64,000 bases of DNA from Promethearchaeota archaeon (GTDB lineage: Archaea > Asgardarchaeota > Lokiarchaeia > Sigyniarchaeales > SOKP01): assembly GCA_019058445.1 (NCBI GenBank), contig JAHPZA010000006.1:96001-160000 (forward strand). Direction: 5' to 3'. The position numbers were made by a program, and so were the translations under genes. Under the pieces are notes generated by a model. The model was not told the origin of the DNA, made no database searches, and worked only from the letters and a program-made list of their open reading frames with translations. Below, piece by piece: positions 7,463-64,000 of this stretch (positions are counted from its first letter, which is position 1; the number at the start of each line of letters is the position of its first letter).

Positions 7463-9649
7463 TTAATTCGAGTTCCAAAATGGATATAAATGTTGAATAA
7501 TGGCATTTTTTTTATCGGGAACAATTTCTAATTCATTCCTAATCCAATCAGATATCCATTTATACTTGTTTTTAAATCTAGAATCCATGAAAATGATTGC
7601 CCCTTTATCCACTATTTTTCTTATTGGTCGACCAGACGCTTGATTTGCCCGTTGAACAGCAGGATACAAATAAGCAAAATTCCAACCCTGCTTGTTAAAT
7701 ACTTTATCATAGTATTCTATTTTTGCAGTAACTCGAGGAGTTGGTAAGTGATATGGGAATCCAGCAATAATTACCGCATTCATAAAATCTCCGGGATAAT
7801 CTTCGCCTTCTGAATTTCTTCCCCCGCATACTCCTAATAAAACGGCTCCTTTTCCAGGATTGCTTGCCATAGATTTAAAATCATTTACTAAAAAAGCATT
7901 TTCTGAGGCAGATAGTCCCGGTTCTTCCACAAACAATTTTTTTCTGTTTTTTTCTGCGATAGCTTCAAGTCCATTATCACGTAAACCTTTTAGTATCTTA
8001 TAGGAAGCACAAAAAATACCTACATTCGCAGGAGTACAATATAAAACTTCATTTATTTTATTCAATATTTTTTTATACATTGAAGGTGTCCTATTTTCTC
8101 TTTTGGTATCCACACCTTCTGTTATAATTGCTTTAATATTTTGTTTTTTAAATGGAGAATCTGCAATAATTCCTTTATAACTTTTTCCACTTTCATGTAA
8201 ACCCATTAAATGATTAAAGACATATGGATTTACGGTTCCAGAAAGATTTAGAGATGTGTAACAATTTTTTAAAATAGGTACGGCAATTTCCCTAGGATCT
8301 AATGCCACAATTTCAAGAGCTATCGTTTTTCTTTCTTTTACTTTCTGAATATTATAACAAAAGAAATAATTTTCTAATGAATAAGTTTTAATCCACTTTA
8401 ACCAAAAATCTGCTAAAGCACCCACGAAATCTCTTGAAATTTCACCATTAGCTAGCTTTTCTTCATGGATTGCTGCACTAAATTCGTAAAGATCCTTAAT
8501 AAAATTTTCATATTCGTTTAAATCGGCAAATCCAAGCTTTTTATGAATTTTTTCCAAAAATATATCGGGAGCTATTGCCTTTTCTTCAGTTTTCAGTATC
8601 TGCTTTTTACGATCAAGATGATCATACAAAATATTAACAAAGCTTTGCATTAATATAGGTGATTGATACATTTCCAAGTCTTTCAAACAAATTCTTAATG
8701 AATATGGGGTTATTCTCTCCGAATTTACATCTGTTGCTACATCAATAATATTATGACATTCATCAATTACTAAGATACATTTATTAACTTCAGTGCCTAT
8801 AAATTTTAGAAATGACTCTCTTATGGAAGGATTAAAGATCCAATTATAATTACAAATTATAATTCGCATTTCTTCCAATAAGAATTTAGATAAAAAATAA
8901 GGGCATAACTTATTTTTAGTACAGAATTTTATAAGATCCTCAGCATCAATTGGTTTTTCGAATAGATTTGGAGCTATTAATATAGGTTTATCGAATTCAT
9001 CTCGTTTTTTTAATAAATTTAAGAAATGAGTACAATTTCTATTTTTTCTTAAGTCTCTACATACGGCCATTGATTCTCGAGGATTTAATTTCAAGGATAA
9101 TAATGTTTTATTAAGACACATTTCATTACGTCCCCGTATCGATATACCATTTATTTTAGCTCCTCCTTTAATGGAATTTATCTTTACAAATTCTGAAATT
9201 TTAATTAATTCCTTAATAACTCTCGTATTTTGAGAGTGGGTCCTGCAGAGATAAATCAATTTTAAGTTTTTTTCAATTACAATTGGAAGAAGGCTGCTTA
9301 AAGCCATAATTGTCTTACCAGTGCCATTTGGGGCGACTAATAAAACAATCTTTTTAGCCCTTGCGCTCTCTTCGATTTGTTTAATAATATCTTCTTGCGA
9401 CTCTCTAAATTGCTCATAAGGAAAAAAATGGAAATAATTAATTTTATTTGATAATTGCGACTTATTCAATATTTTAATTTTTTTTTTATGATTTAGCTCA
9501 TTAGAAATGTGTTTATCTTTTTTAATAATAAGATCAGCTTCAATTTTTAATTTTTCACCCCTCTTGCTCCAATAATTACCACAAACTTTACAATAAAAAC
9601 TCTCTTTCTTGGGATATAAGAGATTTCCACAATCGGGGCAAAATTTCAT
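7463..9649 (-). CDS. xpd: XPD/Rad3 Fe-S SF2 DNA helicase with an N-terminal zinc ribbon
   Basis: Q motif (FRESQ), Walker A APNGTGKT, RTHSQ, Fe-S Cys (NEMC, AVCRD, RNCTH, LCPYF), DECH, LSGT, SEGEDY and QASGRPIR. Confidence 0.9.
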   Translation of the reverse strand: MKFCPDCGNLLYPKKESFYCKVCGNYWSKRGEKLKIEADLIIKKDKHISNELNHKKKIKILNKSQLSNKINYFHFFPYEQFRESQEDIIKQIEESARAKKIVLLVAPNGTGKTIMALSSLLPIVIEKNLKLIYLCRTHSQNTRVIKELIKISEFVKINSIKGGAKINGISIRGRNEMCLNKTLLSLKLNPRESMAVCRDLRKNRNCTHFLNLLKKRDEFDKPILIAPNLFEKPIDAEDLIKFCTKNKLCPYFLSKFLLEEMRIIICNYNWIFNPSIRESFLKFIGTEVNKCILVIDECHNIIDVATDVNSERITPYSLRICLKDLEMYQSPILMQSFVNILYDHLDRKKQILKTEEKAIAPDIFLEKIHKKLGFADLNEYENFIKDLYEFSAAIHEEKLANGEISRDFVGALADFWLKWIKTYSLENYFFCYNIQKVKERKTIALEIVALDPREIAVPILKNCYTSLNLSGTVNPYVFNHLMGLHESGKSYKGIIADSPFKKQNIKAIITEGVDTKRENRTPSMYKKILNKINEVLYCTPANVGIFCASYKILKGLRDNGLEAIAEKNRKKLFVEEPGLSASENAFLVNDFKSMASNPGKGAVLLGVCGGRNSEGEDYPGDFMNAVIIAGFPYHLPTPRVTAKIEYYDKVFNKQGWNFAYLYPAVQRANQASGRPIRKIVDKGAIIFMDSRFKNKYKWISDWIRNELEIVPDKKNAIIQHLYPFWNSN

Positions 9650-9768
9650 AAATAATTTCCCTTAAATTTAAGTTTAATAGTTGAACTGATTGAACATTTA
9701 TATTTGTAAAGACTATAAAAGTTTAATTATTAAGATTATTTTTAAATAAAAACAAGTTATCTGTTAGT

Positions 9769-10968
9769 ATGAATGATAATTTCGATTTCGATGAATTTAT
9801 AAAAAAACTTTCTTTTCCTCGATTATCAGGTTCTGAGGGAGAGATAAAAGCCCAAGAACTTATCGAAACTGAACTTAAAAATCTAAAAATTGATCAATAT
9901 AATAAAGAATCATTTAGTTACACTACTTTTTTTATGAACTTCTTATTAAGAACCTATAGTTCCTTAATAGGACTGCAAATGATTCTTTTAATTATGATGT
10001 TATATTTAAATCTCGTTTATTATGTAATTCTATTTGCTTCTGTTTTATTAATAACAGCTCTCTTTAGTCGAGAGATCAGAGAAAAAATTCAGTTTAAATT
10101 TACAAAGATCGGAAAAAAGAGAACATCTGCAAATTATATTATAGAATTACCAGCCAAACATGAAGATAAAGATAAAAATCAAAATATCATAATTCTCGCC
10201 CATTATGATTCGATTAGTATGACTTTTCATCCAATTTTCGATGGAGTAATTTTCTTCTTTTCTTTAGTTGGTGGAGTAATATTTTCACTTCATATCTTTT
10301 TTATATCTACCTTATATCTTCTGAATATAATTCAATCTATTGAAATCATTCAATTTTTTTATGGATTTTTCTTAGCTGGTTTTTATTGTTTACAATTTTT
10401 TAATAAACGGCATAATAAATCTTTTGGAACAGCAGATAATGCTACAGCAGTAGCTAATAGTTTTTATTGCATTGATTACTTCAGTAAAAATCCACTAAAA
10501 AATACGAATTTATTTTTTGTCTTAACAGGTGCAGAAGAAATGGGGGATTATGGAGCAGATTCTTATATAAAAAAACACAATTCTGAGTTTAATAAGAGTA
10601 ATACGTTTTTTTTTATTCCAGATACAGTCGGAGCTAATGAAGAGACAAATCTTTATGCTTATGCTCAAGGATTCCCGAAAAAAATGTTTTCTCCTAAAAT
10701 TAAAGTTAATATTGAAGAGCTTGTAAAAACTAGCCAAGGATCTTATAAAATTAAACCATTTTATATTCCACCTTTAATTCACTTTAGTACAGATCATGCC
10801 CCTCTAAAACCATTTGGTTATGAATTTATGATCTTTCTATCGAATGCTCCAATTCATTCTGAAAAAGATAATATAAACAATTATCATCCTAATATGTTAG
10901 AAGACTTTAATTTATTTATGAGAGATTTAATAATTCTGATGGATAAAAACTTTAACTATAAAACTTAA
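9769..10968 (+). CDS. M28 family metallopeptidase with inserted TM segments
   Basis: PRLSGSEGE, LAHYDS, GTADNA, TGAEEMG, STDH and IHSEKD metal-ligand motifs, with hydrophobic insertions. Confidence 0.8.
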   Translation: MNDNFDFDEFIKKLSFPRLSGSEGEIKAQELIETELKNLKIDQYNKESFSYTTFFMNFLLRTYSSLIGLQMILLIMMLYLNLVYYVILFASVLLITALFSREIREKIQFKFTKIGKKRTSANYIIELPAKHEDKDKNQNIIILAHYDSISMTFHPIFDGVIFFFSLVGGVIFSLHIFFISTLYLLNIIQSIEIIQFFYGFFLAGFYCLQFFNKRHNKSFGTADNATAVANSFYCIDYFSKNPLKNTNLFFVLTGAEEMGDYGADSYIKKHNSEFNKSNTFFFIPDTVGANEETNLYAYAQGFPKKMFSPKIKVNIEELVKTSQGSYKIKPFYIPPLIHFSTDHAPLKPFGYEFMIFLSNAPIHSEKDNINNYHPNMLEDFNLFMRDLIILMDKNFNYKT

Positions 10969-10995
10969 TTTAGTTGAATACTTTTATTAAAAAAA

Positions 10996-11874
10996 ATGAA
11001 TAATAAAAATAAGCCCCAGTTTAAACAATTGGTTTCTGAGAGTTTGATACGAGATTTGATTCTATTTTCATTTTTATATATTTTAGTCATTGCACAGGAT
11101 TGGGACAATATACTGCTCCTTTTATTTCCTTTGATAACATTCGTATATGCTCTATTTTTTAAAATAATCAATAATATAAGACAAAAAAGTAATACTTCCG
11201 ATTCTCTTATTATATATAATCCTTTAGGATCAGAAAAAATTTCCGCTCATAGATTGAATTTCAGCGCTTATATTCAATTAATTTTATTATTCTGGTTTGG
11301 AGCAGAGTCACTTTACCATCCCCAATTAATTGATAATTATTATATTTATTTCATTTCAATCTTTATATTTATGTATACGTTTGGTTTTTATATCCTATTC
11401 ATTGATTTATGGAAATATAGTAAAATTGAGATAAATTTAGAAGATAGTAATGCGAAATATTCTCAGAAAGAGCAGAATGATCTAGATACTGTGATCTCTT
11501 TTCTCAAAATGAAAAGTTTTAAAATAATTTCTATTATTAATTTGTTAGTCTTTATAATTTTAAATGCATTGAATATTATATTTGCTTTTTTAACCCTCAA
11601 CGAAATCATGCTGGGATTTGAATATTACTTACCTGGGACAGGATTTGAAAATTCAGAGCCAATTAAATTATCATTTATTATCTACGCGATTATTACTACA
11701 CCACCATTGATTTCTATAGCTTTTTTAGCTATTAATTATAAGGATATCAATAATTATAGCGAAGAAAAATTAAACAAAGTTCTCAGTGCATTGCCGAAAA
11801 GTACTCAAAGTAAAATTATGCAAAACCTTATATTACTAAATAAGAGTTTTAAAAATAGACTAAGATTGGAATAA
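10996..11874 (+). CDS. Hypothetical multi-pass membrane protein
   Basis: Long ORF with about 6 hydrophobic segments, in a + strand run of genes. Confidence 0.65.
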   Translation: MNNKNKPQFKQLVSESLIRDLILFSFLYILVIAQDWDNILLLLFPLITFVYALFFKIINNIRQKSNTSDSLIIYNPLGSEKISAHRLNFSAYIQLILLFWFGAESLYHPQLIDNYYIYFISIFIFMYTFGFYILFIDLWKYSKIEINLEDSNAKYSQKEQNDLDTVISFLKMKSFKIISIINLLVFIILNALNIIFAFLTLNEIMLGFEYYLPGTGFENSEPIKLSFIIYAIITTPPLISIAFLAINYKDINNYSEEKLNKVLSALPKSTQSKIMQNLILLNKSFKNRLRLE

Positions 11875-55053: not shown

Positions 55054-56034
55054 TTATTTATTATCTAATAATTTTTGAAGGATTAATGGCATTGAATATA
55101 GATCATAGTAATTATGCTCAATGATTTCTTTTATTAAGCCCACATATCTTTCAGGGTCTTTTTTATACTTTTTATAGCACACCCCTACTAAATTACTCGG
55201 TAATTCATTACTTCTTTTCCAAGATAATAGCTCTTCTTCCATTGACGTTAGCTTATAGCTATCAAACTGCCCCCTAAATTTCCGCCGACAATTCCAATAC
55301 AAGTCTACATGGTGAAAAATGGTATTACTCTGCTGAAAAGGCTCATCATTCTCTGAAATCATAGGATTTTCATCAAAAAAATATAAGAATCGATTTGCAA
55401 TATAGGGAATGTCAAAACTTCTTCCGTTATAAGTGATAAACGTTTTAAAATGGGGAAGGATCTCACTTTGCATATATTCGCAAATAGCGATTTCCTCTTC
55501 TAAATCCCTTGCAAAATATTGATGGATTTCAAATGCATCATCCTGAAAAAATCCTAATCCCATGATAATTATGGGGCTATCATACAATCCTAAGGTTTCA
55601 ATATCAATAAATAAAAGTTCCTCAAGATCAAAACAAAATAAAACGTCTAAATCATAAACATATTTATTACAGCGGAGTTTTTTATAATCCTTACACTTAA
55701 TTAACCTTAGAACTTCTCGTGCTGCTTTGTTATATTTGAGGTGAAATAAAAGATCATTAAGTGTTTTTATTCCTCTTCTGATTAATTGTTGTTCAATGTA
55801 TTCACCAATATAATATACTGTCTTGAGGTTCCGCATCAGGTTTTTTTTTGTTCTTACTAACTTCAGATTACAGGGAAAATCATTTTCTTTCCATATAATT
55901 TTCATGAAATCTCCGGATTCAACATGAATAATTTCGTGATTAGGGAAAAGTTCTTCAACTTTTTTACCTCTATACTGTTCTACTAACCGGGTAATATCCA
56001 AGCTTTCAAAGTTATAATAGTAGTCCATTGCCAC
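55054..56034 (-). CDS. YprB/RNase_H_2 family DEDD 3'-5' exonuclease
   Basis: FIDIETLGL, TYNGRSFDIPYI, HVDLY and HNYYDL; upstream HhH-like VYYIGEYIEQQL. Confidence 0.8.
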   Translation of the reverse strand: MAMDYYYNFESLDITRLVEQYRGKKVEELFPNHEIIHVESGDFMKIIWKENDFPCNLKLVRTKKNLMRNLKTVYYIGEYIEQQLIRRGIKTLNDLLFHLKYNKAAREVLRLIKCKDYKKLRCNKYVYDLDVLFCFDLEELLFIDIETLGLYDSPIIIMGLGFFQDDAFEIHQYFARDLEEEIAICEYMQSEILPHFKTFITYNGRSFDIPYIANRFLYFFDENPMISENDEPFQQSNTIFHHVDLYWNCRRKFRGQFDSYKLTSMEEELLSWKRSNELPSNLVGVCYKKYKKDPERYVGLIKEIIEHNYYDLYSMPLILQKLLDNK

Positions 56035-56139: not shown

Positions 56140-57474
56140 CTATAGGTCGATTTTAGGAATAACGTCCTCTAATTCCCTGCGTGTGGGTTTATATTTGAAG
56201 AGTCTACGAGATTCGCTATCTTCAAGCACATAATTAGATCCTCCACCATGCAGCATACAGTACGCATCAAGCAACCCTATTGGATTGGAATATTGTCTAA
56301 TAAATCCACGTCCACCCATGGTCCTGAAACAATGTGTAGCAGCTTCAAATGCTAATTCAGTGGTTTGAATTTTTAATCCCATCGCTTGAGCTGCCATTAA
56401 TTTTGAGCCTCCAAGTTCAGGGCGCTTATCTAATTCTCTCGTATAATTTATCAAAGCTGTTAATAAAAGATTCAACTGACGTATATTAGCTGAAATTGGA
56501 AATCTAATAACTTGATATTCATGTAATCTTTGTTCAAACTGTCTTCTATGTAACGCGTATGTATGGGAATATAATAGTTTCTTCATCGCATCTCCAAGAG
56601 CTTCCGCGCCTATTACCAATCTTTCTTCAGTTAACTGATGAAATGCGATATCCAATCCATTTCCCTGAAGAAGATTTTCTCTTGGGAGCTCTACTCTGTC
56701 AAAAATTAGACGACTTACAAAAGCGTCTCTCATTCCATAAGTTCTTATTCGAGCTGATCTAAAGTTTTTTAATTGTTGGTGTTCTGTATCTACAATTACA
56801 GCACCTAATGGACCGTTATTTATTCTACCATATAAAATTATATAATCGGCGATCATTCCATTAGTAATAAAGACTTTTTTTCCTTTTGCAATTACCTTAT
56901 CATCAGTAACTTGTAAATTTAGCTCCATTCGAAAGATGTCACTCCCTGCATTGAATTCAGTCATTGCCGATGCTGCTATTGCTCCATCTTTTGCAATAGG
57001 GTTTAAAAATTTTTCTCTTTGATAGTCGTTTGCCTTATAATTTACAGGATTGCAATAAAGGGTACCTCCCGCAAGGCGTCCCATCTCAATACTCCAATTT
57101 CCAGCTATATAGCGTTCACTGTAATCAGACCATCTCCCCCCACAAAGAGCATAAGCAATAAGAGCATTTCTCGTTATTTTCCCAACTTCATATTCATTTT
57201 CATTTAATGTTGTGGAATAATAACCATTTTCGGCTAGTTTTTTCATGATTTTTATAACAATATCTCGCTTTTTGTCTTGAGTAGGCTCCTCTACGTAGTA
57301 ATTTAGTTCTTCTAATGCTCTGAGATCTTTATCAAGATTTTTCTCTATGAATTCATAAAAATCAGCCAAAAACTCTTTCTCTTTCGCATTCAAAATCGGA
57401 TTTGCTAGTAAATCTAACTCTTGAACATATTTTTGAATACTAATAGGTTCAAATTCACTCAATCTGGTATCCAT
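56140..57474 (-). CDS. Acyl-CoA dehydrogenase
   Basis: AMTEFNAGSD, GKKVFITNG, TEERL, RRQFEQRL, MGGRGF and HGGGSN. Confidence 0.88.
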   Translation of the reverse strand: MDTRLSEFEPISIQKYVQELDLLANPILNAKEKEFLADFYEFIEKNLDKDLRALEELNYYVEEPTQDKKRDIVIKIMKKLAENGYYSTTLNENEYEVGKITRNALIAYALCGGRWSDYSERYIAGNWSIEMGRLAGGTLYCNPVNYKANDYQREKFLNPIAKDGAIAASAMTEFNAGSDIFRMELNLQVTDDKVIAKGKKVFITNGMIADYIILYGRINNGPLGAVIVDTEHQQLKNFRSARIRTYGMRDAFVSRLIFDRVELPRENLLQGNGLDIAFHQLTEERLVIGAEALGDAMKKLLYSHTYALHRRQFEQRLHEYQVIRFPISANIRQLNLLLTALINYTRELDKRPELGGSKLMAAQAMGLKIQTTELAFEAATHCFRTMGGRGFIRQYSNPIGLLDAYCMLHGGGSNYVLEDSESRRLFKYKPTRRELEDVIPKIDL

Positions 57475-57631
57475 ACTAACCTTTTCTCACTTAAATTAAT
57501 AAAATTTTGTTATTATACTCTATGGTAAATATAAGTTTAAAGGTAAAAAAATTTTATAATTTTATATCAATAATAATTAAACATATAGAATTTCAGCTTT
57601 AATTAGAAATGATAAATTAAAAATAGATAAT

Positions 57632-59062
57632 GTGAAAGATATGATTAGATTTAGTGATAAGCAATTAAAAATCCCTAAATTAATGAGGCCGGTATATCTT
57701 GTTACAGCAGGTATGTCAAAATTTGATCGAGCATTTCCAGAAACTCGAACTGAAGAGCTTTGCATAGACGCTTTAACCGCAGCTTCTGATTTTGTAGGTA
57801 TGACACCAGCTGAATTAAAAAAGTACATTCATACATGCTATTATGGTCATTTCGCAGATCATTTTGGTGATCAATTGCTCGGTGAAGCTGTAATCCATGA
57901 TCGACTGGGTTTAGATCCTTTAGGGAATATAGGTGTAAAAACTGGAGGTGCTACAGGAGGTTCAGCTATGTGGGAGGCTGTAAAAGCCGTAGCTTCTGGA
58001 TATAGTGACTGTGCGCTCGCTCTTGGTTGGGAAAGGATGGATGAAGTACCCACTGATGAAGGCAACCATCTTATTTCTTGTGCCGCAGATAAAGATTGGG
58101 AAACTCCCTTAGGACACATTTATACAGGATATTACGCAGTTATGGCACAACGATACTGGAAAGTTTTTGGTAAAGAACAAGATTCTTTTAGGAAAACAAT
58201 GGCGGAAATTGCCGTAAAAAATCGTGGCTACGCTCGAATGAACCCTCATGCCCATGGGCCAATGAAAATTACTGTAGAGGATGTCACTAACTCCCCTATA
58301 GTGGCTTATCCTCTTCGGGTTTTAGACTGTTGTTTAATGAGTGTGGGATCCGCATGTGGTGTGGTGTGTGATGAAAAAACGGCATATGAAATTACGGATA
58401 AACCTCTAAGAATATATATTGCTGCGGGAAGTCATACGTTAAGAGTAGCAGATCGACGGGATATGACAATACCCCTTTTACCAAACGAAACTCCGGGGCA
58501 GTATGACGACATAGGAAAGAAATTTCCAGGTGGTGATCGATATCCTGGTTTTTCTAGCTTTTTGGCCGCACGTGTAGCCGCATATTACGCATATCACATG
58601 TCAGGTGTAGTCGATCCTTCTGAAGATCTCGATGTTGTGGAGTTACATGATGCGTTTACGATTAGTGATATCCAAACCTACGAGGATATCGGAATTCGCC
58701 CTTATGGAGAGGGAAGAGACTATATTGAGTCAGGAGATGCATATGTAATAAATCCACTTACGAAGAAACCTGGAAAACTACCAAGTAATCCATGTGGAGG
58801 ATTAATTGGTTGCATGCACGCCGTAGGGGCAACAGGACTTATGCAGATTGCTGAAATAGGGTATCATATTTGGAATCGATGGGATGAGATTCATGAGCCA
58901 GAAGAAAAATGGAAAGCCTTCGGACGAGAAAAACCAAAAGATTGGACGAGCCTTCAAGTAAAGGGAGCTAAACGCGGTTTGGCAATAAGTCATGCGGGGG
59001 TAGGTTCCCATGTAACTTGTACAATTTTAATGGATCCAAATAAATTAATAAAGGAGGATTAA
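57632..59062 (+). CDS. SCP2-type thiolase-fold protein lacking the nucleophilic Cys (Ltp-type aldolase-like)
   Basis: KTGGATGGSA in place of NACASG; KNR, DCC, ELHDAFT and HAVGATG. The start could be ATG 57641. Confidence 0.85.
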   Translation: MKDMIRFSDKQLKIPKLMRPVYLVTAGMSKFDRAFPETRTEELCIDALTAASDFVGMTPAELKKYIHTCYYGHFADHFGDQLLGEAVIHDRLGLDPLGNIGVKTGGATGGSAMWEAVKAVASGYSDCALALGWERMDEVPTDEGNHLISCAADKDWETPLGHIYTGYYAVMAQRYWKVFGKEQDSFRKTMAEIAVKNRGYARMNPHAHGPMKITVEDVTNSPIVAYPLRVLDCCLMSVGSACGVVCDEKTAYEITDKPLRIYIAAGSHTLRVADRRDMTIPLLPNETPGQYDDIGKKFPGGDRYPGFSSFLAARVAAYYAYHMSGVVDPSEDLDVVELHDAFTISDIQTYEDIGIRPYGEGRDYIESGDAYVINPLTKKPGKLPSNPCGGLIGCMHAVGATGLMQIAEIGYHIWNRWDEIHEPEEKWKAFGREKPKDWTSLQVKGAKRGLAISHAGVGSHVTCTILMDPNKLIKED

Positions 59063-59065
59063 AAA

Positions 59066-59668
59066 ATGCCTAAAACAAATGAGGAAAAAGGTTTTGTTGA
59101 TATAATTAACGGGAGATATAAACCCAATGGAAAATTTCACATAATTGAAGCGAATCAACCAATATTTAATAAAGATACTGGAAAATTGGCTGGAGTGACG
59201 AACCCTAGAGACATGACCTACATCCATTCGTATGGAGGAGAGGCAATTTTCTTTGAATCGCTTGGAAAAGGAAAACTTATGGCAACTCGATGTGACAACG
59301 ATAAGTGTGAAGCAAAGGGTTCTATATTTGAACCTTTTAGAATTTTTTGTCCAGATTGCTTAAGAAAAGCTACTGTAGTCGATATCACAGAAAAGGCTCA
59401 ACAAATGGCAAAAATTCATTCCTTCATAATAACTCATCGTTCAGGCGCCTTTAATACTCTTCCAAAACCGATTAAATTTATCAACGTAGAATTCGATGAG
59501 GAAGTAGTTACTATTTTGATGAGCGTATTGTCAGTTGGTGAGCCAGAAATTGGGAAAAGAGTTGTCCCGATCTTTCGAACTAAAGATCCGACATATACTA
59601 TTATGGATCTTATGTTTGTGGTAGAAGGAACACCTGAATCGGATTTACCAGAAGGATTTACTTATTAA
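59066..59668 (+). CDS. DUF35 zinc-ribbon/OB-fold protein
   Basis: FFESLGKGKLMATRC....C...PFRIFCPDC, then an OB fold (IHSFII..., VVPIFR); translationally coupled to the thiolase-fold gene. Confidence 0.85.
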   Translation: MPKTNEEKGFVDIINGRYKPNGKFHIIEANQPIFNKDTGKLAGVTNPRDMTYIHSYGGEAIFFESLGKGKLMATRCDNDKCEAKGSIFEPFRIFCPDCLRKATVVDITEKAQQMAKIHSFIITHRSGAFNTLPKPIKFINVEFDEEVVTILMSVLSVGEPEIGKRVVPIFRTKDPTYTIMDLMFVVEGTPESDLPEGFTY

Positions 59669-59867
59669 TTTCCAATATTTTTACTATCCATATTTTATTT
59701 TTTTTTAATTTTTTTAAATTAGTTTGTTCAATATAACCATTTTAATTAAATTTTTCAATAAAAATGAATATCATTTAATAGGTTTCGGTGATCCACATCG
59801 ATCTATTAATCTTGTTAATTTCAAGATCTTTAATTCAATTTAAAAAAAAAAAGAAATAAAATAAATT

Positions 59868-60764
59868 TTATAATATAACAGAGCCTTCTTTTAAGTGAAA
59901 AATTTTACGTGCCTCATCAGGAGTAGCTGGCTCACGTCCAGCAATTCTAGCTACCTTTGCTGCCCATTCTACTTGTTCATAAGATCCCTTTGCTAACCCT
60001 CCATCAATGATTCGTGTATTATCCTCTAAACCTACCCTAATGTGTCCTCCCATAGGTGCGGCACACATAGCTGCGCGAAATTGATCTTTAGCTACCCCAC
60101 ACACACTCCATGTAGAGTTTGGAGGCATTAAATTAAGAAGGCTTGCGAGATTTTGGTAAGAAAATGGTACCCCTCCAAGAACCCCCCATACTAATTGAAA
60201 ATGAAGTGGCTGGGCAAAAAGGCCTTCTTGCCTGTTTAAAAATACCATATTATACATGCCGCCATAATCATACACTTCCATCTCAGGCTTCGTTCCAGCC
60301 TTTTTCATTTCTTTTGCAAACTTTTCAACCATTCGAAAATTATTAACGAAGACATTGGTATTACCCATGGTTACTTTTCCTTTTCTATGGTCGCCAACAC
60401 TGAAATTCATTGAATTGGTATTTAAGGATGCCAATGGGGGCTGAAATCTTTTAACAGGCGCGATTCTCTCTTTTTCTGTTGCTACCGCACTTATTGCGGA
60501 ACTTAGATTTATTATTATATCAGGAGCCTTTTCCTTAATAGCTACTAATACAGCTCTAATTTGTTCCAAATCGGCAGTAGGATTACCTTTTTCGGGATCT
60601 CTGGCATGGATATGCACAATTGCCGCACCTGCCTCATAGCATTTTTTCGCCTCTTCTCCAAATTCTTCAGGAGTATAAGGTACATTAGGATTTTGGGCTT
60701 TAACAGTAACAGCTCCTGCGAGTGCAGCGCTAATTACTAATTTATTCGATAAATCTTCAGACAT
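59868..60764 (-). CDS. Beta-keto acid cleavage enzyme (BKACE/Kce, DUF849), copy 2
   Basis: NPNVPYTPEE, AGAAIVHIHARD, SLNTNSMNF, KPEMEVYD, GGHIRVGLEDN and REPATPDEAR. Confidence 0.9.
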   Translation of the reverse strand: MSEDLSNKLVISAALAGAVTVKAQNPNVPYTPEEFGEEAKKCYEAGAAIVHIHARDPEKGNPTADLEQIRAVLVAIKEKAPDIIINLSSAISAVATEKERIAPVKRFQPPLASLNTNSMNFSVGDHRKGKVTMGNTNVFVNNFRMVEKFAKEMKKAGTKPEMEVYDYGGMYNMVFLNRQEGLFAQPLHFQLVWGVLGGVPFSYQNLASLLNLMPPNSTWSVCGVAKDQFRAAMCAAPMGGHIRVGLEDNTRIIDGGLAKGSYEQVEWAAKVARIAGREPATPDEARKIFHLKEGSVIL

Positions 60765-60929
60765 TTTTAATCTCTAACCTCAATAATAGTATTTTAATTT
60801 TATATTTAATGAGTAAAATAAAGTTTGGATAAATTAAAACACTACATATTTTAGGTTTTAAACCTATATTCAAAATAAAATGAATATAAAGAATAAAAAT
60901 AAGAAATTTAAGAAATAAATAAAAAAAAA

Positions 60930-61817
60930 TTAGATATTAATAGTACCTTCTTTTAGGCCTAACATTTTACGAGTTTCGTCTGGCGTCGCGGGTTCCCTGC
61001 CTGCTAATTCTGCCACTTTTACGGCCCATTCGACTTGCTCCCAAGAACCTTTTGCCAATTCACCTTTTATATTTCGAATATTATCCTCTAATCCAACTCG
61101 AATGTGTCCTCCTAAAGCTGCTGCACATAATCCCGCCTCAAATTGTTGATGAGCAACTCCACAGACTGACCACGTAGCATCTGGAGGTTTATGATTTAAA
61201 AAATATTGTAGAGTATTAATCGTAAATGGCAGACCACCCAAAACGCCAAAGACGAACTGGAAATGAAGAGGTTCCACTAGAATTTTCTTCATCTGTAGAA
61301 AGGCAATATTTTGCAGCCCTCCTGCGTCGTAAATTTCTATTTCTGGTTTGGTACCAGCTTTCTTCATCGCTTTGGCAAGACGGCCGATAAGTCGAAATGT
61401 ATTACTAAAAATCGTCTCGACTACAACATCACCCGTTTTCCAATTTCCAACTCCAAAATTCATTGAGGCTGAATTTAATGAAGCCAGCTCAGGTCCAAAC
61501 TCCTTAATAGGAGCGATTCGTTCCTTATCCGTAGCATTAATACTAATCGCAGAACTTAGGTTTATTAAAATTTCGGGACACTCTTCTTTTATAGCCTTTA
61601 AAATCGATCTATAAAATTTGAGCTCAGGAGTTGCCACCTGAGTTTCAGGATCTCTCATATGAAGGTGTACGATAGCTGCTCCTGCTTCATAGCATTTTTT
61701 GCATTCTGCAGCATACTCTTCAGGTGTGATGGGGATCGCGGGATTCTGTTCCTTCCTGGTCACCGCTCCGCACAATGCTGCTGATATTATACATTTATTG
61801 GATAAATCTTCAGACAT
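60930..61817 (-). CDS. Beta-keto acid cleavage enzyme (BKACE/Kce, DUF849), copy 1
   Basis: NPAIPITPEE, AGAAIVHLHMRD, SLNSASMNF, KPEIEIYD and GGHIRVGLEDN. Confidence 0.9.
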   Translation of the reverse strand: MSEDLSNKCIISAALCGAVTRKEQNPAIPITPEEYAAECKKCYEAGAAIVHLHMRDPETQVATPELKFYRSILKAIKEECPEILINLSSAISINATDKERIAPIKEFGPELASLNSASMNFGVGNWKTGDVVVETIFSNTFRLIGRLAKAMKKAGTKPEIEIYDAGGLQNIAFLQMKKILVEPLHFQFVFGVLGGLPFTINTLQYFLNHKPPDATWSVCGVAHQQFEAGLCAAALGGHIRVGLEDNIRNIKGELAKGSWEQVEWAVKVAELAGREPATPDETRKMLGLKEGTINI

Positions 61818-62113
61818 TTAATTTTCTCACTTTTTTAAAATTTTATAATTTTAAGGATTAATTAATTGATTAAAATATTGGTTTTTTCATATTTAAACTT
61901 TAAAAATAGACTGAGTTTTATTGGAAATTTATGTTAATTAGAATTTAACTGAGAACTTTATAACAAACAAATCAAATTCTTAAATTATAAGCGCAAATTG
62001 AATTTTCTAAGAAGTCTTTTGAATAAAAACTTTAATATGAAAAAAAATCATATCTAACATATCAATATTCTTTATAAAATAAATTTAAAATTAAAATATA
62101 AGAGATTAAAATT

Positions 62114-63253
62114 ATGAAAGTAGCAATTGTGGGAGTAGCCCAGACCAAATATGAGAGCAACAAAATCGATCAAACCTATATGGAGCTCACGTTTGAAGTT
62201 GTGAAGAAGCTTCACAATCAATTAGGAATAACAAACGATGACGTGGGTTCGGTAATCACTGGCTCTAACGATTTCACAGATGGTAGAACAATCGCTAATA
62301 TGGCAGTACAAGATGGTGTAGGATCCGTTCGCAAGTCGGAATCGAGAGTTTCGGGAGATGGAGCTTTTGCGTACGTTTACGCTGCTATGAGAGTTTTATC
62401 TCAGGAGTACGATACAGTTTTGGTAGTTTCGCATTCCAAGTGCTCCGAAGGGGATCAGTGCCTTATTAATAACTCAATTTTCGATCCCTTCTATCAGCGA
62501 CATTTGGGTTTGGACCAAATCTCTTCTGCTGGGTTGATGGCAAATATGTATATGAGTAAATATGGTATAACGGAAGAACAAGCGGCAAAGGTGGTAGTTA
62601 AAAACAGAAAAAATGCTTTTAACAATCCTTACGCTCATATACAGAAAGAGATAACTGTTGATGATGTTCTTAAATCGCCCATGTTAGCTTATCCATTAAA
62701 AGAATTAGATCTGCCTCCATATAGCGATGGTGCAGTAGCAATGCTCCTTGCTAATGAGGAAACCGCAAAAAAATTAACAGACACACCAGTATGGTTGAGG
62801 GGATACGCTAATTGTACTGACGCGTATTATCTAGGGAATAGAAACATGACGGATTTAATTGCATTAGAATTAGCAGCAAAGGAGGCCTACAAAATGGCGG
62901 GTATTAGCGATCCTATAAAAGATATAGATGTAGCTGAAGTGTCAGAAAATTTTAGTGCACACGAGCTTATGATTTACGAAGCCTTAGGTTTTTGCGGAAA
63001 GGGAGAAGGTGGAAAGTTTATTGATAGTGGAGAAACCCAAATGGGAGGAAAAATTCCCGTAAATCCTTCTGGAGGAGTATTATCAAGCAATGTGGCTATG
63101 GCAAATGGGTTAATTCGTGTAGCGGAGGTTGCTGAACAGTTAACGGGCAAAGCAGGAAAACGTCAAATACCTGATGCAAAAACAGGATTGGCATATGGGA
63201 TGAATGGAATATGTTCTCAAGGAAATTGCGTGTTAATTTTTGGAGGTGATTAA
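62114..63253 (+). CDS. Thiolase-fold protein, Ltp4-like, catalytically degenerate
   Basis: VAIVGVAQT, ESRVSGDGAFA (no Cys), DGAVA, AEVSENFS (no HD) and VNPSGGVLSSN (no His). Confidence 0.8.
   Translation: MKVAIVGVAQTKYESNKIDQTYMELTFEVVKKLHNQLGITNDDVGSVITGSNDFTDGRTIANMAVQDGVGSVRKSESRVSGDGAFAYVYAAMRVLSQEYDTVLVVSHSKCSEGDQCLINNSIFDPFYQRHLGLDQISSAGLMANMYMSKYGITEEQAAKVVVKNRKNAFNNPYAHIQKEITVDDVLKSPMLAYPLKELDLPPYSDGAVAMLLANEETAKKLTDTPVWLRGYANCTDAYYLGNRNMTDLIALELAAKEAYKMAGISDPIKDIDVAEVSENFSAHELMIYEALGFCGKGEGGKFIDSGETQMGGKIPVNPSGGVLSSNVAMANGLIRVAEVAEQLTGKAGKRQIPDAKTGLAYGMNGICSQGNCVLIFGGD
63242..63250 (+). promoter_or_regulatory. Shine-Dalgarno GGAGGTGAT
   Basis: Near-perfect anti-SD complement 7 nt upstream of the ATG at 63258, overlapping the end of the previous gene. 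Confidence 0.7.
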
Positions 63254-63257
63254 AAAA

Positions 63258-64000
63258 ATGCCTAAACATGATGTAGCAATAGTAGGAATTGGTCAAACTA
63301 AATTTAGAAGTAAGAGAAGGGATGTCAATATCCCCGAAATGATTTATGAAGCTGTAAAAGCAGCTCTTGATGATGCAAATCTAGAAATCAAAGATATAGA
63401 CGCTCTATTAATTGGGAATATGGATCATTTTGAGGGAATAAACTTTAGCGAGCTGTGGACAGGTATCGATGCGTGCGGATTTTATCTCAAACCTGTGGTT
63501 AAAATAGCTACGGGAGGCACTACGGGTTCCTCATTAGGTATAAGTGGATATTATAACATTGCTTCAGGGATATATGATAAAGTATTGGTTGTAGGATGGG
63601 AAAAGCTTAATGAGGGTGGAGCAACAACAGGAATAATTACTGCTTTCGACCCAGTTTGGGAGCGACCATCTTTAGCAGGAGCTTTAGGTCCACTTGCGCT
63701 TATGGCGAACATATATGCATCAAAATACGGGATAGAGCGTTCAATGGAAGCTTCAGCTGATGTGGTTGTGAAAAATCGATCAAACGCTGCAAATAACGAA
63801 TTTGCTCATTTACAGATGCCTAATATTACGACTGATTTTGTAATGAGTTCACAGATGATTAGCTATCCATTACGCTTACACGATTGTTGCCCTCAAAGTG
63901 AAGGAGCTTGCGCAGTAATTTACGCAAACGAGAACGAAGCTAAGAAAATCACAGATAATCCTGCTTGGTTTAAAGGCGTTTCAACGGCACACTATTATAC
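63258..64000 (+). CDS. Thiolase-fold protein, Ltp3-like (3'-truncated; missing from the ORF track)
   Basis: MPKHDVAIVGIGQTKF...KIATGGTTGSS (no Cys)...VGWEK...KNR...HDCCPQSEGACAV; the frame is open to the window end. Confidence 0.85.
   Translation, partial: MPKHDVAIVGIGQTKFRSKRRDVNIPEMIYEAVKAALDDANLEIKDIDALLIGNMDHFEGINFSELWTGIDACGFYLKPVVKIATGGTTGSSLGISGYYNIASGIYDKVLVVGWEKLNEGGATTGIITAFDPVWERPSLAGALGPLALMANIYASKYGIERSMEASADVVVKNRSNAANNEFAHLQMPNITTDFVMSSQMISYPLRLHDCCPQSEGACAVIYANENEAKKITDNPAWFKGVSTAHYY

Follow-up and report, generated by a model that had tools for sequence, protein, structure and literature searches.

Ltp2 and Sal are retro-aldolases in which glycine stands at the nucleophile site, and both work together with DUF35 partners (PMC12329534). 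They act after a hydratase, in complexes whose central dimer is flanked by two DUF35 domains, and their catalytic base is a tyrosine at the first position of the motif that reads HDCF in thiolases: Tyr294 in Ltp2 (YDHF) and Tyr302 in Sal (YDCY) (PMC12329534). Ltp3 and Ltp4 are needed only for sterol side chains branched at C24, and they are called aldol-lyases purely on genetic grounds (PMC6273163, which cites Wilbrink 2012). This work deals with a cluster of Cys-less thiolase-fold genes from an Asgard archaeon (Promethearchaeota). The stretch of DNA analysed, called here the window (64,000 nucleotides, G000:C6:96001-160000), carries seven open reading frames (ORFs) of this cluster at 56140-64000, with which an island of about 37 kb (G000:C6:152140-189275) begins on its left side. 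From the sequences we consider it slightly favoured, with a probability of about 0.55, that the island cleaves acyl chains by hydration and retro-aldol cleavage where thiolysis is impossible.

Three of the ORFs encode proteins with the Pfam domains Thiolase_N and Thiolase_C_1. T476 (57632..59062, plus strand, 476 aa) is a PRK06365-like protein of a class characterised by GGATGG, HDAF and a conserved His. T-beta (T379; 62114..63253, plus strand, 379 aa) and T-alpha (T398; 63240..64000, plus strand) are tandem thiolase-fold subunits of the Ltp4 and Ltp3 clades, respectively. The N-terminal two-thirds of T-alpha lie in the window, and its gene ends at G000:C6:160436, 436 nt beyond the window end; with the sequence past the window the protein has 398 aa (L002:1241-2437). 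Translation probably starts at the ATG at 57644 in T476 and at the ATG at 63258 in T-alpha, the latter giving 390-392 aa and lying 4 nt past the T-beta end.

The initial annotation had described all three proteins as lacking the nucleophilic cysteine, and the alignments bear this out. The motifs at the nucleophile loop are exactly KTGGATGG (T476), RVSGDGAF (T379) and ATGGTTGS (T398), and comparison with 6ESQ, 4YZO and paralogues of the same genome places Gly at the nucleophile position of T476 and T398 and the SGDG stretch at that of T379. Aligned to the archaeal thiolase 6ESQ, which is its best solved match (123 bits), T476 reads VKTGGATGG for VEAACASGS and HDAF for HDCF, whereas the His of the GH motif is kept. 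Aligned to the SCP2-thiolase 6HSJ, T398 reads IYEPT for LHDCF and ST-NPIGAT for SKGHPLGAT. T379 shows RVSGDG, SENF and SNVAM at the Cys, HDCF and GH-motif sites. The same substitutions appear in the alignment with the genome's own Cys-bearing paralogues. All three proteins have the N- and C-terminal domain fold of a thiolase and none has its Cys nucleophile; the acid/base Cys is gone from all of them too, and the His from T379 and T398. The 6ESQ-type thiolases share with the island proteins the SCP2-type fold and the pairing with DUF35, but they work through a Cys85-type acyl-enzyme and the HDCF Cys, which are found in none of the six island proteins.

It is very improbable that these proteins are ordinary thiolases with a different cysteine as nucleophile. 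T476 does have extra cysteines, at NPCGG, GCMH and TCTIL, and Cys217 is present in 15 of the 16 alpha proteins described below. However, the Cytophagales, Thermoplasmatota and distant clade copies conserve none of the three T476 cysteines, which were discarded as substitute nucleophiles; no conserved replacement was found in the clade, in agreement with the initial annotation, which had named ordinary thiolase activity through an alternative Cys as the finding that would speak against it. Besides, the alpha Cys217 also occurs in the genome's Cys-bearing thiolases, where it is not the nucleophile, and alpha has lost the acid/base Cys and His as well. Mini-introns hiding the catalytic Cys were rejected too: the alignments are colinear and the Cys site is substituted, not gapped. 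Such mini-introns are present in a neighbouring thiolase gene (itself of the GGATGG type) and in the OYE gene of the contig. Among solved structures, T379 (166 bits) and T398 (152 bits) both have their best match in PDB 4YZO, a "putative acyl-CoA acyltransferase" of 373 aa for which a literature search turned up no functional paper. It is Cys-less as well (NTSGSGG), but it keeps HD(MA) and GHPIG, a site resembling that of the T476 class. Further thiolase-fold classes, with Pro, Asn or Gly at the nucleophile position (ESGPSSG, ENGPASG, EAGNASG, ENGGNTG), occur in other Asgard genomes (loci L072, L079, L085 and L086); HDAF is retained in all of these, and the GH-motif His in three of the four.

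The island contains six thiolase folds, each with a DUF35 partner and none with a nucleophilic Cys (0/6). No Cys-bearing thiolase was found within its approximately 37 kb, and none of the nine 3HCDH_N genes of the genome (3-hydroxyacyl-CoA dehydrogenase) lies in it. The retro-aldol reading is proposed because steps one and two of beta-oxidation are encoded in the island and step three and the thiolase are not, and because Ltp3 and Ltp4, the only studied members of the clade, are needed for branched side chains and the assayed, more distant relatives are retro-aldolases; the failure to find a carboxyltransferase in the genome, described below, also speaks for it. The cluster had been named "thiolase-free" in the initial annotation, a term that suits the island but not the genome, in which five Cys-bearing SCP2-type thiolases, one more thiolase with Ser and a third alpha/beta pair (contig 9) are found elsewhere. 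The nucleophilic Cys is missing in 8 of the 14 SCP2-type thiolase-fold genes of the genome, and seven of its eight recognisable DUF35 genes partner Cys-less proteins; only the one at C3:567278 adjoins a Cys-bearing thiolase.

The modules could also run in the synthetic direction and assemble acyl compounds that are branched or long-chained, through an aldol or Claisen-like condensation, as has been suggested for fatty-acid synthesis by archaeal ketothiolase/DUF35 pairs. In favour of this, aldol reactions can proceed both ways, DUF35 proteins serve as scaffolds of the biosynthetic thiolase/HMG-CoA synthase and Sulfolobus acidocaldarius fatty acid synthesis (FAS) complexes (bioRxiv 10.1101/2024.07.05.601840; PMC12329534), and the 3.8 ketothiolase/DUF35 pairs per Asgard genome have been taken as a hint of fatty-acid synthesis (bioRxiv 10.1101/2024.07.05.601840). 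Nevertheless, the Claisen condensation of thiolases requires an acyl-Cys intermediate that is impossible here, the neighbours are catabolic (acyl-CoA dehydrogenase, acyl-CoA synthetase and aldehyde:ferredoxin oxidoreductase, abbreviated below as ACAD, in the first case, and AOR, in the last), and no FAS-type ketoacyl or enoyl reductase was found in the island. A synthetic role is therefore quite improbable.

In a maximum-likelihood tree of 37 thiolase-fold proteins the Cys-less proteins form one clade (support 97/93). Alpha and beta proteins group together (100/99); the alpha clade includes the Tsukamurella Ltp3 type and a Rhodococcus plasmid protein (80/70), and the beta clade includes the Tsukamurella Ltp4 type (94/100). 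The T476 class forms its own clade (97/89), sister to alpha plus beta. The description of the tandem as Ltp4/Ltp3-like, already put forward in the initial annotation, is thus supported: T398 groups with the Tsukamurella protein that passes NF006180 (734 bits) and T379 with the one that passes NF005924 (593 bits), and two DUF35 genes follow the pair. T-alpha is 40% identical to the Tsukamurella Ltp3-type protein, with which it has in common TGGxxG, a Y-x-P motif and S-x-NPIGA. On the other hand T476, which had been counted as a third Ltp-type protein, is placed by the tree in a clade separate from Ltp3/Ltp4, and it has His-Asp and the GH-motif His instead of the aldolase Tyr; that label is withdrawn. 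At the position of this Tyr there is His in T476 and Ser in T379, and Tyr in T398 only.

The Tsukamurella locus used for comparison (L057:6984-10161) encodes proteins of 309 aa (OB fold), 359 aa and 390 aa (thiolase domain); around them lie genes for an AMP-binding protein, a crotonase, an F420-dependent LLM oxidoreductase, a P450 and a "steroid 3-ketoacyl-CoA thiolase". This layout is that of fadD19-echA19...Rv3521-ltp4-ltp3 in the Rv3515c-Rv3523 region of M. tuberculosis, where Ltp3, Ltp4 and the tandem-DUF35 protein are Rv3523, Rv3522 and Rv3521. Both loci have adjacent Cys-less genes, beta then alpha, accompanied by two DUF35 domains, and in both a crotonase-type hydratase (ECH) and an acyl-CoA synthetase lie nearby. 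They differ in that the Asgard DUF35 domains are encoded by two separate genes and those of Tsukamurella by one fused protein, and in that the neighbours in the Asgard island are BKACE, AOR, OYE and T476. No sterol genes (P450, FadA5, KstR-type cluster) were found in the 37-kb island. A further arrangement is seen in Rhodococcus qingshengii plasmid pLP1 (L056:7089-10673), with two ACADs and two MaoC halves followed by a 304-aa beta-like "hypothetical protein", an Ltp3-clade alpha and one DUF35; it has the layout of the M. tuberculosis igr operon (ChsE, ChsH, Ltp2), with an Ltp3-clade alpha module instead of Ltp2.

The conservation of the active site suggests that T-alpha is the probable catalytic subunit. 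Among 16 alpha proteins with less than 75% pairwise identity, taken from Asgards, bacteria and actinobacteria, D288, E291, Y293, N342 and K84 are present in all 16, and H190, C217, P295, E65 and the TGG stretch in 15. In the alignment with 6HSJ, Y293 corresponds to the His of HDCF and N342 to the thiolase His. The equivalence of Tyr293 with the aldolase base combines this SCP2-thiolase HDCF alignment with the motif equivalence given in PMC12329534. Beta proteins have S, Y, D, F or H at the Tyr position, and their motif sites vary. T-beta is probably a non-catalytic partner, because the thiolase catalytic residues are all lost and the site is not conserved.

These observations also bear on the idea that the Cys-less proteins are pseudoenzymes, acting as scaffolds or as lipid or acyl-CoA binders for the hydratases or for Cys-bearing thiolases encoded elsewhere. 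The lack of conserved active-site residues in beta is in its favour, as are the SCP2 lipid-carrier gene that adjoins one module, the scaffold function of DUF35 proteins and the frequency of inactive partner subunits among sterol catabolic heteromers. However, the polar residues of the alpha active site are invariant from archaea to bacteria (Y293, N342, E291 and D288, with H190 in 15/16), the 75-94% identity of T476 across phyla and domains fits a constrained catalytic site better, and there is no catalytic thiolase within the island. We regard this explanation as having little probability.

Ltp2-ChsH2 (6OK1) and Sal-Shy (9MYR) resemble the island proteins in the thiolase fold, the Gly at the nucleophile site and the DUF35 partner, which Ltp2 and Sal cannot do without, and the Tyr at the catalytic position is shared by T-alpha only. 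They differ from them in being homodimers, versus the alpha/beta heteromer proposed here, and in having a second catalytic residue (Tyr344 in Ltp2, Cys304 in Sal) without counterpart in T-alpha, Tyr344 not having been aligned directly. Ltp2 and Sal are matched weakly, T398 and T379 scoring 79-90 bits and T476 49 bits. The initial annotation had treated Ltp2 and Ltp3/Ltp4 alike as retro-aldolases; this is proven for Ltp2, whereas for Ltp3/Ltp4, whose function is known from knock-outs only, it stands on genetic evidence (PMC6273163). For the Asgard tandem, Ltp3/4-like retro-aldol chemistry would consequently be inferred twice over, as Ltp3 and Ltp4 rest on genetics themselves.

Directly after T-alpha there are two DUF35 genes that pass Pfam, one of 170 aa (L002:2445-2957) and one of 156 aa (L002:2944-3414), so the window end cuts the cluster; gaps or overlaps of 4 to 14 nt separate the four genes beta, alpha, DUF35 and DUF35. 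Conservation was read in Asgard species-representative loci whose T-alpha is 70% identical or more and that have sufficient sequence on either side, the denominators varying by neighbour. Beta lies upstream in 26 of 27 loci and both DUF35 genes downstream in 26 of 26. A BKACE gene is found at most 6 kb upstream in 16/22, T476 in 13/20, D200 (the DUF35-fold partner of T476) in 13/22, the ACAD of the window (ACAD444) in 13/20, the hydratase ECH279 in 13/18, the FNR-like gene in 18/22 and the CrtI-like gene in 15/22. The cluster is not a product of chance, since its order recurs in many Asgard species-representative genomes, and the co-conservation of its genes, whose absence would have refuted the reading according to the initial annotation, is confirmed by this synteny. 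The same four-gene set occurs in three bacterial contigs, in the order beta, alpha, DUF35, DUF35 or DUF35, beta, alpha, DUF35. In one of them (L018) an ECH gene overlaps beta and an ACAD is also present, and in the other two (L054 and L055) the modules adjoin AMP-forming CoA-ligase genes. Hydratase and ACAD genes adjoin the module in three unrelated lineages, namely bacterial L018, the Rhodococcus plasmid and the Asgards.

T-alpha-like genes (E<=1e-90) are present in 16 of 121 sampled Asgard genomes, and in one Asgard family (f19: G028, G047, G064, G070 and G088) there are four to six copies per genome, so that the Cys-less module is markedly expanded in it. Close homologues of T-alpha are 71-98% identical, the named ones belonging to Promethearchaeota, Hodarchaeota, Lokiarchaeota and Freyarchaeota, and bacterial homologues are about 54% identical.

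In the proposed pathway, ACAD and hydratase would convert an acyl-CoA into a 3-hydroxyacyl-CoA that is barred from oxidation or thiolysis by a branch or bulky group at or near C3. The T-beta, T-alpha, DUF35, DUF35 operon is predicted to form a heterotetramer DUF35-beta-alpha-DUF35, modelled on the Ltp2 and Sal complexes, in which Tyr293 of alpha would act as a base on the 3-hydroxyl and split the C2-C3 bond. The products would be acetyl- or propionyl-CoA and an aldehyde or ketone; an aldehyde could be oxidised to the acid by AOR, with reduction of ferredoxin, and re-activated by the synthetase. T476/D200 is a second Cys-less enzyme, separate in its evolution and with two His retained; it probably acts on a small acyl-CoA coming from ACAD and hydratase, with lyase or decarboxylase chemistry as candidates. 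The BKACEs would return free beta-keto acid to the CoA pool. The presence of ACAD and hydratases with AOR near, together with the lack of 3-hydroxyacyl-CoA dehydrogenase and thiolase in the island, suggests that anaerobic archaea have a form of beta-oxidation that is aldolytic and yields reduced ferredoxin. No description of such a pathway in Asgard archaea was found in the literature searched (Asgard with DUF35 or BKACE), as the initial annotation had supposed.

Several points weigh against this proposal. The literature search found no enzyme assay for any member of the Ltp3/Ltp4 clade, and the proposed chemistry is taken over from Ltp2 and Sal, which are more remote relatives. T-alpha has one of the two aldolase catalytic residues, with Pro295 at the position of Sal Cys304 and Ltp2 His296 and Asn342 at that of the thiolase His, and T476 has His, not Tyr, at the position of the aldolase base. 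The alpha clade is moderately supported (80/70), and long branches lead to Ltp3 and Ltp4. T-alpha reaches 366 bits with NF006180, its best match, below the cut-off of 514; T-beta reaches 206 bits with NF005924 (cut-off 419) and matches NF006180 better (276 bits). The AOR and the iron-containing alcohol dehydrogenase (Fe-ADH) of the island usually have counterparts near the tandem in other Asgards, but these are divergent paralogues with 31-37% identity, the Hodarchaeota copies being closer (42-56%). Besides, every aldolytic round would cost an ATP-to-AMP re-activation, and the island has no carboxylase or dehydrogenase to feed the BKACEs.

A more specific version of the retro-aldol proposal, namely that 3-methyl-branched acyl-CoAs (candidates being isoprenoid acids of archaeal or algal lipid origin and leucine-derived isovaleryl-CoA) are degraded strictly anaerobically and without a carboxylase, must be considered unlikely at present. 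Dehydrogenation of the isovaleryl-CoA dehydrogenase (IVD) type would be followed by hydration to a tertiary 3-hydroxy-3-methylacyl-CoA, which the Ltp3/4-like complex or T476/D200 could split into acetyl-CoA and a methyl ketone or aldehyde; the product, once oxidised or carboxylated, might re-enter metabolism through AOR and synthetase, or through BKACE. The IVD-type ACAD, the lack of a detected carboxyltransferase and the CrtI-family flavoprotein and reductase conserved nearby are compatible with such a route. A search of the 92.6%-complete genome for an acyl-CoA carboxyltransferase (PF01039) gave none, although the family is present in 12 of 14 control genomes; for this reason no methylcrotonyl-, geranyl-, propionyl- or acetyl-CoA carboxylase was detected, and the carboxylase route around a 3-methyl branch was not found. 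If true, the route would represent a new form of isoprenoid-lipid recycling in Asgard archaea. The initial annotation had named isoprenoid, sterol or hopanoid chains as substrates, and here it went further than the data, because nothing in the analysis identifies the substrate as such.

T476 is followed, 3 nt after its stop codon, by D200 (59066..59668, plus strand, 200 aa). The coupling of T476 to a DUF35 protein had been proposed at the outset, and D200 is the only ORF of the seven whose family was not confirmed by Pfam: its best indication there is below the cut-off (OB_ChsH2_C, E=0.011). The protein has a Cys4 zinc ribbon, with C76, C95 and C98 invariant among homologues and C81 nearly so, preceded by an N-terminal extension of about 65 aa and followed by an OB fold. 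Its AlphaFold model has a pLDDT of 72, exceeding 80 over most of residues 60-200, and in Foldseek its top 19 PDB matches are all DUF35 chains (3IRB, 6OK1 B/D, 9MYR_B and 6ESQ_F), of which the 6OK1 match is ChsH2 and the 9MYR match is Shy. According to ribbon and model, D200 is a DUF35-fold protein.

T476 itself scores 675.9 bits with NF004982, whose cut-off is 695, and a look-up in the ESM Atlas gave generic thiolase clusters only. It is 88-94% identical among Asgard loci and 75-80% identical to proteins labelled Planctomycetes, Cytophagales, Marinimicrobia, Fidelibacterota, Gammaproteobacteria and Thermoplasmatota; compared with the Cytophagales and Thermoplasmatota pairs, T476 and D200 are about 78% and 64% identical, respectively. 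A D200-like gene follows the T476 homologue in every context read (including L058, L059, L063 and L064), and a PRK06365-like gene (E<=1e-100) is present in 15 of the 121 sampled Asgard genomes. The patchy distribution and the high identity to bacterial copies point to a horizontal, inter-domain transfer of a strongly constrained two-gene unit. Outside the Asgards the neighbours of this unit vary: Rnf, Trk, ECH, ACAD, CoA-transferase, a B12-binding protein and an ADP-forming CoA ligase. That ACAD444 is a constant partner of T476 there is not supported, since no homologue lies beside the Cytophagales copy and elsewhere only generic ACADs do.

It is in T476/D200, above all, that the Cys-less proteins could do other chemistry, such as decarboxylation of malonyl-, methylmalonyl- or beta-ketoacyl-CoA, hydrolytic retro-Claisen cleavage or CoA-independent C-acyl transfer of the PhlABC type. 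The T476 clade keeps the HDAF His and the GHxVGAT His, both those of thiolases, and has lost the cysteines only. Weak malonyl-CoA decarboxylase activity is known from the Cys-less trypanosomal SLP (PMC12329534), although Sal showed none (PMC12329534); the PhlC and MucABC complexes share fold and DUF35, although PhlC, according to its literature, retains the catalytic Cys. In bacteria T476/D200 adjoins B12-mutase, CoA-ligase, ACAD or ECH genes and no one pathway is prominent. On the other hand, alpha and beta have lost both His, the aldolase Tyr is present in alpha, and there is no source of malonyl-CoA, as no carboxyltransferase was found. Such other chemistry is on the unlikely side. The pair, very strongly conserved in bacteria and archaea and uncharacterised, is a good target for assays.

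ACAD444 (56140..57474, minus strand, 444 aa; Acyl-CoA_dh_M and Acyl-CoA_dh_1) is transcribed divergently from T476. Its best PDB matches are isovaleryl-CoA dehydrogenases (aligned to 4O5M, and also to 4L1F), and it has no NCBIfam equivalog match. The helix-G Glu is kept (LTEERL compared with LDYERV), and LHGGGS stands where the medium-chain (MCAD) type has YEG. Judged by the catalytic base, ACAD444 is a divergent dehydrogenase of the IVD/LCAD (long-chain) type, as had been suggested.

Between D200 and T-beta lie two paralogous DUF849 genes on the minus strand, BKACE_a (59868..60764; PF05853, 309.5 bits) and BKACE_b (60930..61817; PF05853, 306.2 bits). Their HxH and RVGLED (R-x-G-x-E-D) motifs align with those of Kce (2Y7D), in which they hold the metal and catalytic residues, and both genes are intact BKACEs, in line with their initial assignment. 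They remain below all three NCBIfam BKACE equivalog cut-offs (Kce, dioxohexanoate and 3-oxoadipate). With Kce they share the TIM barrel of the BKACE family; they differ in that the island has no lysine-fermentation neighbours and in that the best PDB match is the uncharacterised 3LOT. The participation of BKACE in the pathway, also part of the initial annotation, is only partly sustained. The gene is linked to the tandem in the 16 of 22 Asgard loci mentioned above and stays beside it even where T476 is missing, but it is absent from the three bacterial tandem loci read, and the island has no enzyme that makes beta-keto acids. The second copy occurs in only a few related loci. A ketone carboxylase feeding the BKACEs was discarded as well: the single Hydantoinase_B gene of the genome is on another contig and unlinked. 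The genome has five BKACE genes, BKACE_b included. Dehydrogenase and BKACE are usually paired, and two other BKACE paralogues (G000:C3:395515-397554 and C3:462502-472077) do adjoin genes of the 3-hydroxyacyl-CoA-dehydrogenase family; the island pair has no such neighbour.

These genes should not be counted as thiolases. In public records the Cys-less genes are labelled "acetyl-CoA acetyltransferase" or "thiolase", and in five further Asgard genomes, from five families, the Cys is missing in 10 of 26 SCP2-type thiolase-fold genes. The ketothiolase/DUF35 counts of bioRxiv 10.1101/2024.07.05.601840, which bear on the lipid-divide question, require a check of the catalytic Cys.

Past the two DUF35 genes the island continues with an FMN reductase and a 371-aa protein with a C-terminal ferredoxin domain, followed by a FadH/OYE-type reductase with an in-frame TGA interruption, ECH279 with two further C-terminal-ferredoxin proteins, Fe-ADH with AOR, an FNR-like reductase with the CrtI-family flavoprotein, and ECH271 with an AMP-forming acyl-CoA synthetase. 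Then come a second module (DUF35, beta2, alpha2, DUF35) and, further on, an SCP2 protein, a DUF35 and a split Cys-less thiolase-fold gene (IASGGATGG, HDAF, GHAVGATG). ECH279 and ECH271 are the two crotonase-type hydratases of the island. EchA19 was rejected as a specific match of both: it is the first or nearly the first NCBIfam match, but far below its cut-off and no better than many crotonases.

Directly upstream of the cluster there are an unrelated RNase-H-like protein, a methyltransferase and a SIR2-TPR protein, and because these neighbours are unrelated the cluster is considered to begin at 56140. At 55054-56034 of the window (minus strand), immediately before the cluster, a stand-alone 326-aa protein combines an RNase_H_2 domain with a weak match to the exonuclease of family-B DNA polymerases. 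The TGA of the OYE gene falls at L002:7790-7883 (G000:C6:165789-165882, minus strand), shortly after QLYHGG, and the same frame continues free of stops. The three ferredoxin-domain paralogues of the island, of 366-371 aa (L002:4873-5988, minus strand; 9390-10490 and 10587-11696, plus strand), have two C-terminal [4Fe-4S] motifs; their N-terminal stretch of about 290 aa is without Pfam match, and one copy is also present in a Hodarchaeota locus.

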